Source: an uncultured Gammaproteobacteria bacterium (GTDB lineage Bacteria; Patescibacteriota; Microgenomatia; Levybacterales; GWA1-39-11). From it: DNA of 64,000 bases. The stretch is taken from contig CAYVKP010000001.1 of assembly GCA_964452165.1 (NCBI GenBank), forward strand, positions 490,729-554,728, in the 5' to 3' direction. The notes under the pieces are model-generated. The model had not been told where the DNA came from. It searched no databases and saw only the letters and a program-made list of their open reading frames with translations. This document shows, one piece after another, positions 35,883-44,358 of this stretch (the first letter of the stretch is position 1; the number at the start of each line of letters is the position of its first letter). The translations under genes and the position numbers were made by a program.

Positions 35883-36413
35883 ATGCGTTATCTTAAAGAT
35901 ACTGCCTTCATTCTGAGACGCATTAACTTTGGTGATTCGGATCGCTACATTACTCTCTTCACAAAAAACCACGGCAAGATTGAAGTTGTGGCAAAAGGTG
36001 TTCGTAAGATTACTTCACGACGCGCCCCATCAATTGAGCTTTTCAACATGGTTGAGTTTCAAGCTATCAAAACTCAAAAGAATTACATTTTGACTGAAGT
36101 CAAGCTTGTCTCATCCTTTGAACATCTCAAGAAAGAGCTCAAACATATAGAGAAAGTTTTTCTTATGTGTGAATTGATAGATGCGGTTATGGCAGACGGA
36201 GTCCGCCACGTGGACGTTTTTGATCTTCTCGAGCGAGCAGGAGAAAAGATTTCCGACAATGAAAAGAATATGGCCTATTTTCAAGCAAAACTCCTGTCGC
36301 TTCTTGGGTTTTGGGATGGAAAAGCGGCTTTTAAGAATGATGATCATGTGCGCCAAGTAGTAGAGCAGGTAATTGAAAGAAAATTGAAAAGTCCCGCAGC
36401 CTTCTCCGCCTAA
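35883..36413 (+). CDS. recO: DNA repair protein RecO (short form)
   Basis: AFILRRINFGDSDRYITLFTKNHGKIEVVAKGVRK matches the RecO N-terminal OB-fold consensus. Confidence 0.55.
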   Translation: MRYLKDTAFILRRINFGDSDRYITLFTKNHGKIEVVAKGVRKITSRRAPSIELFNMVEFQAIKTQKNYILTEVKLVSSFEHLKKELKHIEKVFLMCELIDAVMADGVRHVDVFDLLERAGEKISDNEKNMAYFQAKLLSLLGFWDGKAAFKNDDHVRQVVEQVIERKLKSPAAFSA

Positions 36414-36453: not shown

Positions 36454-38673
36454 ATGGCAGTAGAAACTGATGCAAGAATAATAATTGATCGACTTCTTCG
36501 TGAAGCAGGTTGGGATATTGAGAATAAACAAATAGTTTCAACAGAAGAGCCGGCAGCAGACGGGAGAGCAGACTACCTGTTAAAAGATCAGCATGGGAGG
36601 CCGCTTGCAGTAATCGAAGCAAAGAGATTTTCTATAGAGCCAAACCGAGCCCAAGAACAAGCAAAAGATTATGCTATTTCTATATCTGCGCCTTATGTTT
36701 TTTTATCAAATGGAGAAGTAATCTATTTCTGGGATTATAAAAATCACGCTGCAAGGTTAGTAGATACTTTTTATTCAAGAGAAGACCTGGAAAGAAAATA
36801 CGCTCTTTCTAAAAACCTAACACCACTAACCGAAGTATCAATACCTTCGAGCTTTCTATATTTAAACGATGAAATTACCGTTAGGCCCTACCAGGTTGAT
36901 GCCATAAAGGCTGTTGATAAAGCAATCGAATCTGGAAAAAGAAGAATGCTAATAGAGATGGCTACTGGAACAGGTAAGACTCTAACGGTGGCAATTATAA
37001 TGAAGAGACTTTTTGAGTCGGGTTTAGTTCAACGAGTTTTATTTTTGGTCGACAGAAAGCAGCTTGCAGAGCAAACAAAAGACGTTTTTACAGAGTACTT
37101 AAGAGAAACTCCATCGAAAGTTTGGTATGGTGGAAAGCCGAAAGAGCTAGGTCAGATCGTTATTGGGACGCTTCCAACGATTGCATCTCAGCTTGAGCGT
37201 TTTGGTCCAGGGCACTTTGATTTGGTTGTGACGGATGAGTGTCACAGGTCAATTTATAATATTTACCGTGAGTTACTCAATCATTTTGATGCTTTGCATA
37301 TTGGCATGACTGCAACTCCAAATCTTGGTCAGTACGAATTCGTAAATGAAAAGGAAAAAAGGTTAGTGAGAAATACCTACGAATTTTATAAGTGCTGGAA
37401 TCATGCTACTAAAATCGGCGAACCAACTTTTGCTTATGGAATCGTTGAGGGAATAAAAGACGGTTTCCTCGCAAATTACCAAATTTATTTGGCTAAGTCG
37501 AGAATTACATCTGAGGGTGTGACATATGAAGGAGTTGACTATAAGCCCTCAGAGCTTGAAAGGACTATCACGATTGAGTCCCGTAATAAGCTGATGGTTC
37601 AGGAGTTTGCAGAAATGGAGAAGCAGCGGGGTGGAGATCATCTTAGGAAGACAATTCTTTTCGCCGTTACAAAAAACCATGCCGCACAGCTTAAAAGATT
37701 TTTTGATGAAGAATTCCCAGAATATACGGGTGATTATGCAAAGATCATTACTTCCGATACTCCTAATCCCGGACAAATCCTGAAGGATTTTGAAAAACAG
37801 CAATTTCCGGTATGCCTTATTTCTGTCGGAATGCTTGATACCGGAATTGATGCGCCAAACGTTGAAAACCTTGTCATGATGCGCCCAACTGTCTCAGCTG
37901 TCCTTTATCAGCAAATGCGCGGACGCGGAACTCGTAAAGATCCCAAAATTGGAAAAGAGTCATTTCTTATTTATGATTTTGTAGGAAATGCAGAGAAGTT
38001 TAATGATCCCATGCTTGAAAACGCAGTTCCCGGGGAAAGCCATCTGTCCGTTGGATTATTTGATGCCATAGAGAAAGAAGAAGAAAAGAGAAAGAAAGAA
38101 TTCGTTGTAGTTAAAGAGCATGAACTGACTGATGAAATGCAGACAAGGCAAATGATTCATGTTGGTCCAGAAGGTATGGCGATCGACAGGCAGAATTATA
38201 AAGAAAAATTTAAAGAGACTGTATCAAGTATGGAAGATGATGAAACAATTCAAAAAATACTCACAGATAAGGTATTGGATCAGGGAGAGATTAATGAATT
38301 AGCGAGAAAACTAAATCAACCAGAGGATTACTTTAATGAAGATAACCTTAAAGACGCTTACGGAGAGCCTTCGGGTTCATTGGTGGACTTTATAAAGGCT
38401 GCGTTCGGTAAATACAGGTTTCCAACTAAAAGAGAGCGTGTAAATAAAAACTTTGATTCCTGGTTGAGACAAAAGAATTTTAATATCGACCAAATTTCAT
38501 TACTATCACAACTTAAAAACAGGTTTGTAGCAGGAGATATTGAGATAACTGCCGAGGACTTTACAAAGCCTCCGCTTAGAGAACAAGGAGGCATACAGAA
38601 GGCCGTTTCTTTATTTGGGGAGCAGGGATTGAGACAGACACTGGAAGAGCTTAATGAAACAGTACTGAATTAA
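36454..38673 (+). CDS. hsdR: Type I restriction enzyme R subunit (HsdR-like; N-terminal PD-(D/E)xK nuclease + SF2 helicase), compact 739 aa
   Basis: HsdR_N-type start IIIDRLLREAGWD...DYLL...PLAVIEAKR (D..EAK). Helicase motifs: I MATGTGKT, II DECHRS, VI QMRGRGTR. Confidence 0.7.
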   Translation: MAVETDARIIIDRLLREAGWDIENKQIVSTEEPAADGRADYLLKDQHGRPLAVIEAKRFSIEPNRAQEQAKDYAISISAPYVFLSNGEVIYFWDYKNHAARLVDTFYSREDLERKYALSKNLTPLTEVSIPSSFLYLNDEITVRPYQVDAIKAVDKAIESGKRRMLIEMATGTGKTLTVAIIMKRLFESGLVQRVLFLVDRKQLAEQTKDVFTEYLRETPSKVWYGGKPKELGQIVIGTLPTIASQLERFGPGHFDLVVTDECHRSIYNIYRELLNHFDALHIGMTATPNLGQYEFVNEKEKRLVRNTYEFYKCWNHATKIGEPTFAYGIVEGIKDGFLANYQIYLAKSRITSEGVTYEGVDYKPSELERTITIESRNKLMVQEFAEMEKQRGGDHLRKTILFAVTKNHAAQLKRFFDEEFPEYTGDYAKIITSDTPNPGQILKDFEKQQFPVCLISVGMLDTGIDAPNVENLVMMRPTVSAVLYQQMRGRGTRKDPKIGKESFLIYDFVGNAEKFNDPMLENAVPGESHLSVGLFDAIEKEEEKRKKEFVVVKEHELTDEMQTRQMIHVGPEGMAIDRQNYKEKFKETVSSMEDDETIQKILTDKVLDQGEINELARKLNQPEDYFNEDNLKDAYGEPSGSLVDFIKAAFGKYRFPTKRERVNKNFDSWLRQKNFNIDQISLLSQLKNRFVAGDIEITAEDFTKPPLREQGGIQKAVSLFGEQGLRQTLEELNETVLN

Positions 38674-40167
38674 ATGACAAAACAAGAATTATTAAATACA
38701 GTAGATAAGCTTGCGGATGTTTTCAACGGCGCAGGAATTACGAATCCAATTACTTATATTGAGCAAATTAATTTCCTGTTTTTCCTAAAAATGCTTGAAG
38801 AATGGGATGATTCAAATACCTTAGCTGCAAAACTATCTGGTAGAATCTCTGCTCCGATTTTTACAGGGACAGGCGAGCCATTCCGTTGGTCTTCTTGGTC
38901 ACAAATTCCAAATAACGAGCGAATGTTTCAGTTTCTCAGAGATGAAGTTCTAAAATTTATCGAAAATATCCCTAACAGGTCAGACATAAAAAGATTCTTT
39001 GCTGATGTCCGCTTTATGGTTCCAGATCCTATAACTTTGCGCGAGGTTGTAGACTTAATTTCTCCAATTAATTTTTCACAAATTGACGCCGATGTTAAAG
39101 GAGATGTATACGAACATTTAATCGGTAAGCTTGCAACGTCGGGAAGAAACGGACAATTTAGAACTCCTCGCCATATTATTCGTACTATTGTCCAAATGGT
39201 AGATCCAAAACTTGGGCAAACAATTCTTGATCCTGCAGCTGGAACAGGTGGATTCTTACTTGCGGCGTTCGAATATATAAAAGCGAATAATTCAGATAAG
39301 CCAGAGGAAGTAGTAACAGAAAGCGGAAGTAAATATTTAAGAGGACACGGAGACAATTTAAGCGAAAAAGATTGGAATAAATTGCAAAAAGAAACGTTTT
39401 GGGGATTTGATGTGTCACCAGATATTGCAAAAATTGCACTCATGAATATGATATTGCACGGACTTGATGCTGGTAATATATATAGACGCGATTCACTCGC
39501 AGGTGCATCAGATAAATTCGAGACCATGAGTTTTGATGTTGTTCTTGCAAATCCTCCATTTTCAGCAGATGTTGCAATTGAAAGATTGCGTCCAATTTTA
39601 CCAATCCAGGCAAAAGATACGACAATCCTGTTTTTGGGTTTAATGGTTGATTCACTAAAGCCTGGTGGAGTGTGCGGTGTCATTGTGAATGAAGGAGTTC
39701 TTTTTGGAAGGAATAATGCCGCACTTCAGATTAGAAAATACATCCTTGATAAAACAGAGCTCCAAGCTGTAGTTTCTCTGCCTCAGGGAGTTTTCAATCC
39801 CTATGCGGGAGTTAAAACAAGTTTTCTGATTTTCAAAAACACCGGGAAGCCAACAGATAAAGTTTGGTTTTATGAAGTGGGAAGCGATGGCTATTCAACC
39901 GGTGCAAATAGAAGGCCACAACCAGAGAAGAATGATCTACCAGATTTGTTAGAAAAATGGCCAGAAAGAAAAATATCTGAGAAAAGTTGGATAGTTGAAA
40001 GAAAACAAATTGAAGAAAATGATTTAATTCTCTCCGCCAGCGCCCACAAGCCTGCAGGAGCAGATTCAAATAAAATCCACCGTGACCCAAAAGATATTTT
40101 GGAAGAAATTGACTTATTAACGATACAAATAGAAGATCAAAGGGACAAGATTAAGGATTTAATATGA
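38674..40167 (+). CDS. hsdM: Type I restriction-modification system M subunit (N6-adenine DNA methyltransferase)
   Basis: ILDPAAGTGGFLLAA (AdoMet motif I) and VLANPPFS (motif IV NPPF). Confidence 0.85.
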   Translation: MTKQELLNTVDKLADVFNGAGITNPITYIEQINFLFFLKMLEEWDDSNTLAAKLSGRISAPIFTGTGEPFRWSSWSQIPNNERMFQFLRDEVLKFIENIPNRSDIKRFFADVRFMVPDPITLREVVDLISPINFSQIDADVKGDVYEHLIGKLATSGRNGQFRTPRHIIRTIVQMVDPKLGQTILDPAAGTGGFLLAAFEYIKANNSDKPEEVVTESGSKYLRGHGDNLSEKDWNKLQKETFWGFDVSPDIAKIALMNMILHGLDAGNIYRRDSLAGASDKFETMSFDVVLANPPFSADVAIERLRPILPIQAKDTTILFLGLMVDSLKPGGVCGVIVNEGVLFGRNNAALQIRKYILDKTELQAVVSLPQGVFNPYAGVKTSFLIFKNTGKPTDKVWFYEVGSDGYSTGANRRPQPEKNDLPDLLEKWPERKISEKSWIVERKQIEENDLILSASAHKPAGADSNKIHRDPKDILEEIDLLTIQIEDQRDKIKDLI

Positions 40168-40168
40168 T

Positions 40169-41323
40169 ATGGGTATTAATAAAGATGATTATAGAAAAGT
40201 AAACTATAGGTACAACGGTCAACACTTATATTTTTCAAAAAACCACGTTTTTCATCTCCACTTCAAGCATAGAAGAAGGACTTTTAAATTTCCATACCAT
40301 AAGAATTTACTCGACTTTTTAAAAGATAACCCAGAATGGAATGTATTTTTTACTGCGGATATTTCTATTAAGCCGTTTAAACGGTACGGAAACGATTTTT
40401 TGATAAATATCGATTCGTATTTGGAATTTTGTGAATCAATGCAAGGCAAGACAGACGGCCGTGCAAAGGCATTTCTTGGGCAAAACTTGAAATTGATTGA
40501 TATTGCTACTTCACAGGAGGAGAAAGACGATTTTATTAAAGTCAATGCAAACGAAAAAAATATATTGGGAGCGATTAAAAGTCTAAATGAAGAAAGCAAA
40601 AAAAATATAGTTCAAGAATTAAGCAAGTTTGAAGTGTCCCGGGTAGACAGTGAAATTAGTTCTGAAAAGTTTGCAGCAACTTTTGTTAAATTTTTGACAG
40701 ATAAAAATGTACAACAAGTTTTGTTCGACAATTTACCGAGGATTCAAATAGAGACTTTAAAAAGTCATATAGATTTTTTGGAGAAAGCTTTAGGTCATAA
40801 TGAAACCTACGTTCAAGAATGGATTGATGAAGAGAATGGCAAATACAGAAAACAGCGATGTCTCATCTTTGGCATAGAGTTTGTTGACCCCAAACGAGAA
40901 GGTAAGTTGAACGAGAAGCGTTTTGATATTCTTGCAGAGCAAAATAGAGAGAGTCACATACTTATCGAACTGAAGTCTCCGGGTCATAATATATTTGACA
41001 TTAAAGAAACCCCAAATAAGAACGGTGGTGTTAGTACGCAATATACAATCTCAACTCATCTTTCTAGGGCTATACCTCAAATTTTAGGATATAAAGACTG
41101 GTATGAGAGCGCGAGCTTAGAAGAAATTCAGGCGCTAGGGATTGAAAGCAAACGGTCTATTTCAAAATGCATCATCGTTATTGGACAAAATAAACAAGAT
41201 AACGTATGGAGAGAAAACTTTCGCCGTCTCAAAGCAAATATAAACATAGAGGTTCTGACATATAATGATTTAATAGATAAACTAAAAAACTCCATCAAGA
41301 ATTTAGAGGAAAATCTTAACTAG
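40169..41323 (+). CDS. Hypothetical protein embedded in the R-M operon; candidate PD-(D/E)xK nuclease with Shedu (DUF4263)-like architecture
   Basis: The C-terminal region RFDILAEQNRESHILIELKSP gives D-x13-E-x-K, followed by QILGY and a conserved-looking KCIIVIGQN block. The N-terminal ~230 aa is a Lys/Glu-rich variable domain. The gene is 1 nt after hsdM and 2 nt before hsdS. Confidence 0.4.
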   Translation: MGINKDDYRKVNYRYNGQHLYFSKNHVFHLHFKHRRRTFKFPYHKNLLDFLKDNPEWNVFFTADISIKPFKRYGNDFLINIDSYLEFCESMQGKTDGRAKAFLGQNLKLIDIATSQEEKDDFIKVNANEKNILGAIKSLNEESKKNIVQELSKFEVSRVDSEISSEKFAATFVKFLTDKNVQQVLFDNLPRIQIETLKSHIDFLEKALGHNETYVQEWIDEENGKYRKQRCLIFGIEFVDPKREGKLNEKRFDILAEQNRESHILIELKSPGHNIFDIKETPNKNGGVSTQYTISTHLSRAIPQILGYKDWYESASLEEIQALGIESKRSISKCIIVIGQNKQDNVWRENFRRLKANINIEVLTYNDLIDKLKNSIKNLEENLN

Positions 41324-41325
41324 AA

Positions 41326-42459
41326 ATGAAAAACAATTGGCCTGTGAAAAAGTTGGGAGAAGTAGCAGAGGTCTACGGAGGCGGAACCCCTCGACGATCA
41401 ATCTCAGAGTATTGGGATAATGATGTGCCTTGGTTGACAATGGAAGACATAAACTCAAAATTTTATGTTGGCGGTACGGTTCAATACATATCTAATTTAG
41501 GACTTGAGAAGAGCAACGCTCAGCTAGTGCCTTCAGGAAGCGTAGTAATAAGTTCCACTGCGTCAGTAGGAAATGTCGCTATTAATACTATTCCATTGGC
41601 AACTAACCAGCAATTTAATTCATTTCATCCAAAGGAAGCTCTTAATGCAGAATTCTTGGCATATTATTTGATCTTCGATAAAGAAAGAATAAAACGATTG
41701 GGAGGATCTACCACTTTCCAGTTCATAAGCAAGACTACGATTTCAAACTATGGAATTCCTATCCCCCCGATGATTATTCAGAAAAAAATTGTTGAGAAGT
41801 TGGATACGGTAAGACGAGTGCAAGAGCTTTGTGATCAGGAAATCCAAAAAATTGAAGAGCTTATTGAATCAGTAGTTTTCAAATACGTGCAAAATTCAAT
41901 ATCTAATAGGGCTAAATTGGGGGAAGTTTGCAAATATGAGGGAGGAACTCAACCTCCAAAATCAACGTTTATTTCCACATTAAAAGAAGGATATATTCGT
42001 CTTCTTCAGATCAGAGACTATAAAAGTGATAAAGATGCCGTTTATATCCCAGTTAAGGAACGTCATAAGACATGTACTGAAGATGATATTATGATAGGAA
42101 GGTACGGTCCTCCAGTTTTTCAAATTTTAAGAGGTAAAGTAGGAGCATATAACGTTGCCTTAATCAAATGCAACCCCGATAAAAAATTTCTACTGAATGA
42201 TTGGTTATTCTATTTTCTCAGAACTACACCCGTACAGGACAAAATTATTGGTCTTTCAATGAGAGCGAGACAATGGGGAGTAAATCCTGCTGATTTAGAT
42301 AATCTTGAAATACCCCTTCCAAGCCTAAGTGAACAGCAAGAGGTTATCGAAAAGCTTAATGCGATACAGGAGCATAAAAAACTTTTGCTGCGAGAGAGAG
42401 AACTTCTCAAAGAACTCTTTGATTCAGTTTTGAATAAGTGCATGAGAGGTGAAGTCTAA
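41326..42459 (+). CDS. hsdS: Type I restriction-modification system S (specificity) subunit, two target-recognition domains
   Basis: Two repeats of the TRD-flanking conserved block (KKLGEVAEVYGGGTP... and AKLGEVCKYEGGTQP...), with coiled-coil conserved regions between them. Confidence 0.8.
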   Translation: MKNNWPVKKLGEVAEVYGGGTPRRSISEYWDNDVPWLTMEDINSKFYVGGTVQYISNLGLEKSNAQLVPSGSVVISSTASVGNVAINTIPLATNQQFNSFHPKEALNAEFLAYYLIFDKERIKRLGGSTTFQFISKTTISNYGIPIPPMIIQKKIVEKLDTVRRVQELCDQEIQKIEELIESVVFKYVQNSISNRAKLGEVCKYEGGTQPPKSTFISTLKEGYIRLLQIRDYKSDKDAVYIPVKERHKTCTEDDIMIGRYGPPVFQILRGKVGAYNVALIKCNPDKKFLLNDWLFYFLRTTPVQDKIIGLSMRARQWGVNPADLDNLEIPLPSLSEQQEVIEKLNAIQEHKKLLLRERELLKELFDSVLNKCMRGEV

Positions 42460-42520: not shown

Positions 42521-43012
42521 TTGAGTTATCATCGCTTTATGCCGTGGGATCCTAAAAATCACCCCAAGATGTCCATTCCAAAAAACGAAGACGAATATTT
42601 TGAGGTCATGTCCCGTGTAGTATTCTCTACGGGTCTTAACTGGAACGTTATCAATAAAAAATGGCCGGGTATAAAAGCGGCTCTTTCGAATTTTTCAGCT
42701 GAAAAAGTAGCAAATTATAAAGCCACAGCCGTTGAAGAGCTACTCCAAGACGAGCGTATGATAAGAAGTGCTTCCAAAATCAATGCAGTTATCAAGAATG
42801 CAGGTGCAATACTTTCAGTGAAAAAGGAATTCGGATCCTTTAAAAAATATCTCGATCAAACGAAGAAGATGGGAGCCGAAGAATTACTTGGGGATCTCAA
42901 GAAAAGATTTTCGTATCTTGGTGAGTCAACCGCCCTCATGTTTCTTTATGGAGCAGGAGAGCAAACAAGTGAACTCGATAAAATAATGCGAACGCGTCAC
43001 AAGGGAAAATAG
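42521..43012 (+). CDS. tag: DNA-3-methyladenine glycosylase I
   Basis: EYFEVMSRVVFSTGLNWNVINKKWPGIKAALSNF...DERMIRSASKINAVIKNA is colinear with Tag (FE..clE..QAGLSW..vL.KR..yR.aF..F...IIRhrgKI.A.I.NA). Confidence 0.65.
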   Translation: MSYHRFMPWDPKNHPKMSIPKNEDEYFEVMSRVVFSTGLNWNVINKKWPGIKAALSNFSAEKVANYKATAVEELLQDERMIRSASKINAVIKNAGAILSVKKEFGSFKKYLDQTKKMGAEELLGDLKKRFSYLGESTALMFLYGAGEQTSELDKIMRTRHKGK

Positions 43013-43707: not shown

Positions 43708-43977
43708 ATGTTAAAAAAAAGAGCTCTTGAGAGAATAGTCAGGTCTTTTGGGAATCATAGGAGAATAGAGATGCTTGACTTGCTTTCTAAAAATCCCGAA
43801 CTCAACCTAACAGATATTGCATCGAGTTTCAAAATTAATATACAAACAGCCAGTGAGCATGTAAGAAAGCTCACTATTTCAGGTCTTGTAATGAAGAAAA
43901 GTCAGGGTAGAAATATCCGCCATAAATTAACAAAAAGAGGATCAAATGTTCTAACGTTCTTACAATCATTAGACTGA
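43708..43977 (+). CDS. ArsR/SmtB-like winged-helix transcriptional regulator
   Basis: RIEMLDLLSKNPELNLTDIASSFKINIQTASEHVRKLTISGLVMKKSQGRNIRHKLTKRG matches the ArsR HTH consensus (R..IL..L....V.DL......S...VS.HL..L...GLV). Confidence 0.6.
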   Translation: MLKKRALERIVRSFGNHRRIEMLDLLSKNPELNLTDIASSFKINIQTASEHVRKLTISGLVMKKSQGRNIRHKLTKRGSNVLTFLQSLD

Positions 43978-43980
43978 GTT

Positions 43981-44358
43981 ATGAATATTAGGGAGATTTA
44001 TTATATGTTCGATGGTAAGTTGGTGGGGAATCGGCGTATGAAGAATTACGTTTGTAAGGTTGTTCAAAAAATGCCACCTTACTTAATTAGTTTGATAACG
44101 GAAAAGTGTTGGTTTATGGCGTCAATGGACGATGCGTATGGTTTTACTTTTACCGGTAATGATTTACGTGATCAACACCTAATATTCCTGAGTGATGATT
44201 TGTTCCGCCAAAGCGAAAATCAGATTTACTACACCATAGCCCATGAGATAGGTCACGTAATTTTGGGTCATCGTAATTCAACAACTACCCGCCAGACAAA
44301 AGACGAAGTTCGCAGGCAAGAAAAAGAAGCAGATGAATTTGCGAAAAAATACGTTTAG
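43981..44358 (+). CDS. ImmA/IrrE-family (DUF955-like) zinc metallopeptidase, small
   Basis: HEIGHVILGH (HExxH) followed by EKEADEFA, which parallels the E.EAN.FA third-ligand motif of ImmA/IrrE. It starts 4 nt after the HTH gene. Confidence 0.5.
   Translation: MNIREIYYMFDGKLVGNRRMKNYVCKVVQKMPPYLISLITEKCWFMASMDDAYGFTFTGNDLRDQHLIFLSDDLFRQSENQIYYTIAHEIGHVILGHRNSTTTRQTKDEVRRQEKEADEFAKKYV

Follow-up and report, generated by a model that had tools for sequence, protein, structure and literature searches.

A predicted Shedu nuclease gene within a complete type I operon

The stretch of DNA analysed here (64 kb of contig CAYVKP010000001.1, assembly GCA_964452165.1; termed the window) contains a type I restriction–modification (R-M) operon in which an additional gene, encoding a predicted nuclease of the Shedu family, lies between hsdM and hsdS. 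The operon begins with hsdR (36454..38673, + strand), the product of which is a 739-amino-acid (aa) restriction subunit matching the Pfam families HSDR_N/HSDR_N_2, ResIII, Helicase_C and EcoEI_R_C together with the PADLOC model REase_I (E 5e-75), and containing an intact nuclease motif (D-x14-EAK). The start of hsdM (38674..40167, +) immediately abuts the hsdR stop, and this gene encodes a 497-aa methyltransferase subunit identified by HsdM_N, N6_Mtase (E 1e-55) and PADLOC MTase_I (E 1e-135). The Shedu (sduA-like) gene, located from the list of open reading frames (ORFs) and from family matches, occupies 40169..41323 (+; 384 aa plus stop) and is followed by hsdS (41326..42459, +), encoding a 377-aa specificity subunit with two Methylase_S repeats (E 2e-47) for target recognition and matches to many PADLOC Specificity_I models. 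The Pfam and PADLOC matches describe a complete and co-oriented type I set, comprising the HsdR nuclease and superfamily 2 translocase, the HsdM N6-adenine methyltransferase, and HsdS.

The boundaries of the additional gene were read directly from the sequence. The hsdM stop codon (TGA, 40165-40167) is separated by a single T from the Shedu ATG at 40169, and the Shedu stop codon (TAG, 41321-41323) is separated by AA from the hsdS ATG at 41326. A first-pass annotation, prepared from the DNA letters without database searches, had described a 384-aa ORF here with spacers of 1 and 2 nucleotides (nt), and its coordinates were exact. The sequence AAGGA (40153..40157, +) sits 11 nt 5' of the Shedu ATG, within the 3' end of hsdM, and GAGGA (41306..41310, +) sits 15 nt 5' of the hsdS ATG, within the 3' end of the Shedu gene; both resemble Shine-Dalgarno elements and may function as such. 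A scan for consensus promoters and terminators revealed no terminator-like site on the + strand between hsdM and hsdS, and the counts were at or below the shuffled expectation, giving no enrichment either way. Because spacers of only 1 and 2 nt separate the Shedu gene from its neighbours, it most likely shares a transcript with the hsd genes, and its translation is most likely coupled to theirs. Between 40000 and 41500 the GC content dips to 0.34-0.35 over the Shedu ORF, compared with ~0.39 for the window as a whole and for hsdR and hsdM. The difference is small, and is compatible with, and weak evidence for, a separate, foreign origin.

Family assignment and domain architecture

The protein encoded between hsdM and hsdS was compared with curated families. 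It matched Pfam SduA_C (PF14082) over aa 246-369 with 44.3 bits, above the gathering cutoff of 27 (E 2.8e-11), and also matched the PADLOC SduA models PDLC00380, 00406, 00405 and 00401. No NCBIfam model matched the ORF, and a single-sequence phmmer search against the PDB returned nothing for it. The homologues at E<=1e-3 numbered 303, with the best non-self match reaching 1.5e-159 over 99% of the length, which places the ORF far from chance. Members of the family are labelled 'Shedu anti-phage system protein SduA domain-containing' by NCBI.

The DUF4263/SduA_C PD-(D/E)xK nuclease domain was placed at aa ~208-384 (40790..41320, +) from the Pfam match and from a profile alignment to Bacillus cereus Shedu (PDB 8TI9). 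Its motif D253-x13-E267-L-K269 (FDILAEQNRESHILIELK) is followed by IPQILGY, containing Q304 and Y308, and then by CIIVIG (aa 334-339). In the family-profile alignment, E212 (motif I) corresponds to E204 of B. cereus Shedu, D253 (motif II) to D249, E267 and K269 (motif III) to E264 and K266, and Q304 (motif IV) to Q295. The codons lie on the + strand at 40802-40804 (E212), 40925-40927 (D253), 40967-40969 (E267), 40973-40975 (K269) and 41078-41080 (Q304). The first four residues were invariant in 116/116 full-length homologues, and the motif IV position was occupied by Q in 81 and by E in 35. An intact and invariant set of catalytic residues is as expected of an active enzyme, and catalysis is predicted on this basis.

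The structure of the protein was modelled with AlphaFold2, using a 37-sequence alignment for the full-length protein; all models were of monomers. The mean predicted local distance difference test (pLDDT) score was 80.9, rising to ~93 across the nuclease core. A Foldseek search of the PDB with this model gave B. cereus Shedu as all of its top five matches (E 4e-7), and the predicted fold is an elaborated PD-(D/E)xK fold lying nearest to the solved Shedu structures. The window protein is ~20-23% identical to B. cereus Shedu (PDB 8TI8/8TI9) in the nuclease domain.

The first-pass annotation had left the N-terminal ~230 aa unrecognised. The models instead predict the usual Shedu layout, in which a small α/β domain and a helical linker precede the C-terminal nuclease in a Type 1 architecture. 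When aa 1-112 (40169..40504, +) were modelled alone (pLDDT 81.7; predicted template modelling score 0.74), the order of elements was β1β2α1β3β4β5α2, which Gu et al. (10.1101/2023.08.10.552793) describe as the NRF1 core of Type 1B Shedu, the second-largest class. By this order of elements, the predicted N-terminal regulatory or sensor domain appears Type 1B-like, whereas that of B. cereus Shedu is of the sPC4/Whirly type (Type 1A). The region at aa ~113-207 (40505..40789, +; boundaries approximate, with helices at 116-207 in the full-length model) had lower pLDDT values of 56-87 and resembles the linker region of the solved Shedu proteins. At 384 aa in total, the protein is close to the average reported for type I Shedu (386 aa).

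On these sequence profiles and predicted structures, the protein is assigned to the known Shedu (SduA/DUF4263) family of anti-phage nucleases. The first-pass annotation had located a D-x13-E-x-K pattern, a downstream Q..Y and a hydrophobic IVIG block at the C terminus, and had likened them to PD-(D/E)xK nucleases and to Shedu SduA. Each element was found there, and PF14082, the four PADLOC models, the Foldseek matches and the invariant residues agree on the likeness. The checks it had proposed gave the same picture, since the hidden Markov model searches (Pfam PF14082, PADLOC) were above the curated threshold and the restriction-endonuclease fold was recovered by AlphaFold and Foldseek as B. 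cereus Shedu at E 4e-7. The novelty in its suggestion of a new abortive-infection or nuclease effector riding on an R-M system is not supported, as the family is known and the arrangement has been published: of the 5,499 Shedu genes that Gu et al. surveyed, 602 are encoded inside R-M systems of types I-IV, and those authors suggested complementation between the two. Abortive infection is at most one conceivable mode of action.

Other identities were considered for the ORF. A fragment of HsdS or the C-terminal domain of HsdR was rejected, as neither Methylase_S nor EcoEI_R_C/HSDR matched the ORF at E<=1. PrrC and RloC were likewise rejected: the ORF contains no Walker A motif ([GA]xxxxGK[ST]), and no ATPase family was among its Pfam or PADLOC matches, in keeping with the first-pass view that the protein is neither of these and has no ABC ATPase.

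Genomic contexts of related Shedu genes

The surroundings of related genes were collected from ~21 distinct loci carrying full-length relatives (41-64% identical), from Patescibacteria, Bacteroidota, Ignavibacteriota and one gammaproteobacterial metagenome-assembled genome. In a scan of genome contigs, relatives were recovered with the alignment as query but not with the protein alone. At 8 of the ~21 loci (the window, L005, L010, L011, L012, L013, L014 and L113) the Shedu gene lies exactly between hsdM and hsdS, so the recurrence at this position that the first-pass annotation had proposed to look for was indeed found. Several of these eight Shedu genes overlap both neighbours by 4 nt, and the position of hsdR varies (hsdR-hsdM-Shedu-hsdS or hsdM-Shedu-hsdS-hsdR). 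At L007 the Shedu gene lies directly 3' of a type III-like mod-res pair, and at L006, L019 and L020 it stands beside type II-like methyltransferase/endonuclease genes. The remaining loci are defence or mobile islands, or have no recognisable partner; their neighbours include SIR2 with Schlafen, PIN_8, a STAND-like NTPase, SMODS/IS110/integrase and Ea47/resolvase. Approximately 9 of the 21 loci have no R-M neighbour.

Several of these loci had further features. The closest relative of the window operon is L005, with 63% identity in Shedu, 81% in HsdR and 74% in HsdM. This locus has two extra reverse-strand genes, encoding a helix-turn-helix (HTH) protein and an M78 peptidase, between hsdM and Shedu, which means that the hsdM–hsdS junction is variable even among close relatives. 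At L007 (2161-9164) the genes are co-oriented and tightly packed in the order AbiEii, N6_N4 methyltransferase, ResIII helicase-nuclease, Shedu and a 326-aa protein with no Pfam match, the gene for which is also found 3' of Shedu on a second contig (L008). In Saccharibacteria (L026-L031, e.g. L028 4136-10114) a sister Shedu of 383 aa, alignable over the nuclease half only and with another N-terminal domain, stands in a row of T5orf172/MUG113, GmrSD (type IV restriction), Shedu and DUF2779, and is another Shedu adjoining a restriction enzyme. At L015 (5785-7890, -) genes for SIR2_2-domain and Schlafen/AlbA_2 proteins are arranged head to head with a Shedu gene that stands alone; the SIR2_2 and Schlafen genes probably constitute a two-gene defence system of their own within this island. 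The copies at two Bacteroidota loci look degraded: L025 (8001-9033) has matches in three frames and is a frameshifted pseudogene, and L019 (8001-9046) has a 238-aa ORF spanning the C-terminal part only.

These contexts bear on whether the window gene is an inactive remnant or a passenger without a role in defence, for example a housekeeping DNA repair enzyme like NucS/EndoMS. Decay does occur in the family, as the frameshifted and truncated relatives demonstrate. The window ORF is full length, however, with E212, D253, E267 and K269 intact and invariant across the 116 homologues; the neighbourhoods are overwhelmingly of defence or mobile genes; and the patchy spread over Patescibacteria, Bacteroidota, Ignavibacteriota and Gammaproteobacteria is typical of defence and not of repair genes. 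A decayed or non-defence passenger is therefore considered very improbable.

The hsdM–hsdS junction as a slot for cargo

The junction itself was studied in 80 metagenomic loci with relatives of the window HsdM, in 66 of which both hsdM and hsdS were found. The default arrangement, with hsdS abutting or overlapping hsdM, was present in 53/66. Other genes lay between hsdM and hsdS in the remaining 13/66, and none of the 13 was a Shedu of the window type. The cargo included an OLD/GajA-like (Gabija-like) ATPase-TOPRIM protein (L108), an AriA-like AAA_15 ATPase (L041), Fic/SoFic (L080; PADLOC PDC-S04), KilA-N (L088; PDC-S22), DUF3800 (L036), an RNase H-like RVT_3 protein together with one protein of unknown family (L033), and a four-gene insert including PIG-L (L034). 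The junction proteins of L050 (405 aa) and L110 (330 aa) matched nothing in Pfam or PADLOC and might represent defence proteins that are as yet uncharacterised. Since unrelated cargo is present in 13 of the 66 relatives, the hsdM–hsdS junction is a general, reusable slot for accessory defence genes, of which the window Shedu is one occupant. The view in the first-pass annotation that type I R-M loci serve as landing pads for extra defence genes is borne out by these inserts and by the embedded genes already published.

The divergence of Shedu and HsdM was then compared. The HsdM proteins of the loci with Shedu at the junction are only ~30-75% identical to each other. Between L010 and L013, HsdM is 75% identical and Shedu 54%, whereas between L011/L012 and L014, HsdM is 33% identical and Shedu 69-70%. 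A neighbour-joining tree, which carried no bootstrap support, was used only alongside these pairwise identities. The discordant identities indicate that the Shedu gene moved among unrelated type I systems and did not co-diverge with one. The Shedu gene is most probably cargo; its family membership, its catalytic site, its embedding in the operon and its mobility between contexts were each observed.

It could be that the protein is instead an integral accessory subunit, binding the HsdM2HsdS core as an alternative or additional type I nuclease. Its gene does stand between the two genes for the methyltransferase core, with apparent translational coupling to both. Nevertheless, the HsdR of the operon is complete with a nuclease motif of its own, 80% of the related operons have no insert at all, the family occurs without any hsd genes, Shedu and HsdM do not co-diverge, and the solved Shedu proteins are self-sufficient homotetramers. 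An integral subunit is considered highly unlikely. That full-length members of the family are also found near type II or type III genes, or alone in defence and mobile islands, argues for cargo rather than a subunit.

Interpretation and relation to known systems

The best explanation, to which we assign a probability of roughly 0.75, is that the window encodes a predicted catalytically competent Shedu anti-phage nuclease, carried as cargo between hsdM and hsdS in an otherwise ordinary and intact type I operon. The protein would consist of an NRF1-like N-terminal sensor, a helical linker and a C-terminal DUF4263 PD-(D/E)xK nuclease. By homology with the solved Shedu proteins, it would assemble through its nuclease domain as a homotetramer, with the N-terminal domains inhibiting the nuclease and sensing a DNA feature specific to infection, after which the nuclease may nick or cut the invading DNA. 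B. cereus Shedu becomes active when inhibition by the N-terminal region is lifted and an octamer forms (Gu et al., 10.1101/2023.08.10.552793). In E. coli SduA (PDB 8PS4/8PS6; Loeff et al., 10.1101/2023.08.10.552762), an N-terminal clamp senses the free ends of linear double-stranded DNA and the nuclease nicks. The window protein would then provide a second, sequence-independent layer of defence beside the methylation-dependent type I enzyme, not as its subunit.

Some points weigh against this explanation. The sample of ~21 loci is small and phylogenetically non-independent, and the co-transcription of the Shedu gene with the hsd genes is inferred from spacing and a shared strand alone. Furthermore, the 8 of ~21 loci with Shedu at the hsdM–hsdS junction are well above the ~11% of all Shedu genes that lie in any R-M system, and this enrichment could reflect a functional tie to type I enzymes and not indifferent hitch-hiking.

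One form of such a tie would be a functionally coupled module, in which HsdR cuts unmethylated DNA at distant sites to leave linear ends, which the Shedu clamp detects before the nuclease completes the destruction of the molecule. Shedu would then play the part that RecBCD plays in E. coli, a role that could be particularly important in a Patescibacteria genome of reduced size. Besides the enrichment, this proposal is favoured by the exact position recurring, several times with 4-nt overlaps, beside HsdM proteins that are only ~30-75% identical, and by four further loci that adjoin other R-M genes. It is also in keeping with the end sensing of EcSduA and with the redundancy that Loeff et al. 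note with RecBCD acting on restriction products. In the V. cholerae type I operon carrying TgvAB, the whole cluster protects 10-100-fold better than TgvAB alone. However, the ~9 of 21 loci without an R-M neighbour indicate that the protein is evidently kept on its own, and the junction also takes unrelated cargo, as a hotspot would and a specific partnership would not. End sensing by the window N-terminal domain would be a mere analogy with EcSduA, and the RecBCD/AddAB content of the genome lies beyond the reach of the window. A coupled module is regarded as unlikely. The more specific proposal, that this Shedu clade is a specialised type I R-M partner, with HsdR-made ends as its trigger and a RecBCD-like 'finisher' role in small Patescibacteria genomes, is regarded as quite unlikely. 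Were coupling true, restriction and Shedu would form a two-step pathway, and the enrichment would be a sign of cooperation, with restriction-made ends and an end-sensing nuclease amounting to two immune systems that share a DNA intermediate.

The preferred reading, that of a Shedu nuclease as junction cargo, can be set beside published systems. Payne et al. (10.1101/2024.01.29.577857) found that type I R-M, BREX, DISARM and Hma often contain embedded defence genes, that most of the genes inserted into type I R-M serve in defence, and that 96.7% share the orientation of the system hosting them. These genes and the R-M-embedded Shedu of Gu et al. represent the same phenomenon as the window gene, namely a co-oriented defence gene inside an operon, whereas B. 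cereus Shedu has been studied as a standalone gene. TgvAB, encoded on VPI-2 of V. cholerae, is experimentally verified cargo in a type I operon. TgvAB and PrrC/RloC are likewise accessory effectors nested among hsd genes and proposed to back up or complement restriction; TgvAB is, however, a GmrSD-like type IV system and PrrC/RloC are ABC-ATPase anticodon nucleases, and the window protein, which has no P-loop, is unrelated to them.

The finding bears out what was already known and leaves it unaltered. With it, a well-documented example from an uncultivated Patescibacteria-type genome joins those behind the emerging view that defence operons of several genes harbour further defence genes. The preference of one Shedu subfamily for the hsdM–hsdS junction is a modest new observation; this subfamily fills the slot at 8 of the ~21 loci, and ~20% of related operons hold unrelated cargo there. 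The searchable text of the Gu and Payne surveys does not single out a Patescibacteria/Bacteroidota subfamily or a consistent hsdM–hsdS position, and the phylum list of Gu et al., in that same text, does not mention Patescibacteria. The literature searched contained no paper singling out the subfamily, its position at this junction, or Shedu in Patescibacteria.

Neighbouring genes

The window is highly compact, with 51 of its 54 ORFs of at least 100 aa on the + strand and many overlaps of 3-19 nt. The neighbours of the hsd operon are housekeeping genes, encoding RecO (35883-36413), the glycosylase Tag (42521-43012), PEBP and glycyl-tRNA synthetase (GlyRS), and its flanks carry no integrases or transposases. 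Scans of the 64 kb for tRNA genes and Rfam families found neither, and hence the operon has no integration site linked to a tRNA gene in its vicinity.

Approximately 1.2 kb 3' of hsdS (43708-44358, +) lie two small genes, the first for an 89-aa MarR/ArsR-like winged-HTH protein and the second, 3 nt later, for a 125-aa IrrE/ImmA-like M78 zincin peptidase with a HEIGH motif. The HTH and M78 pair recurs at L005 (3842-4830, -), where it forms the insert between hsdM and Shedu in the closest homologous operon, and at L112 (9789-10768, -), 3.6 kb from a standalone Shedu gene. The two proteins may together regulate defence genes.
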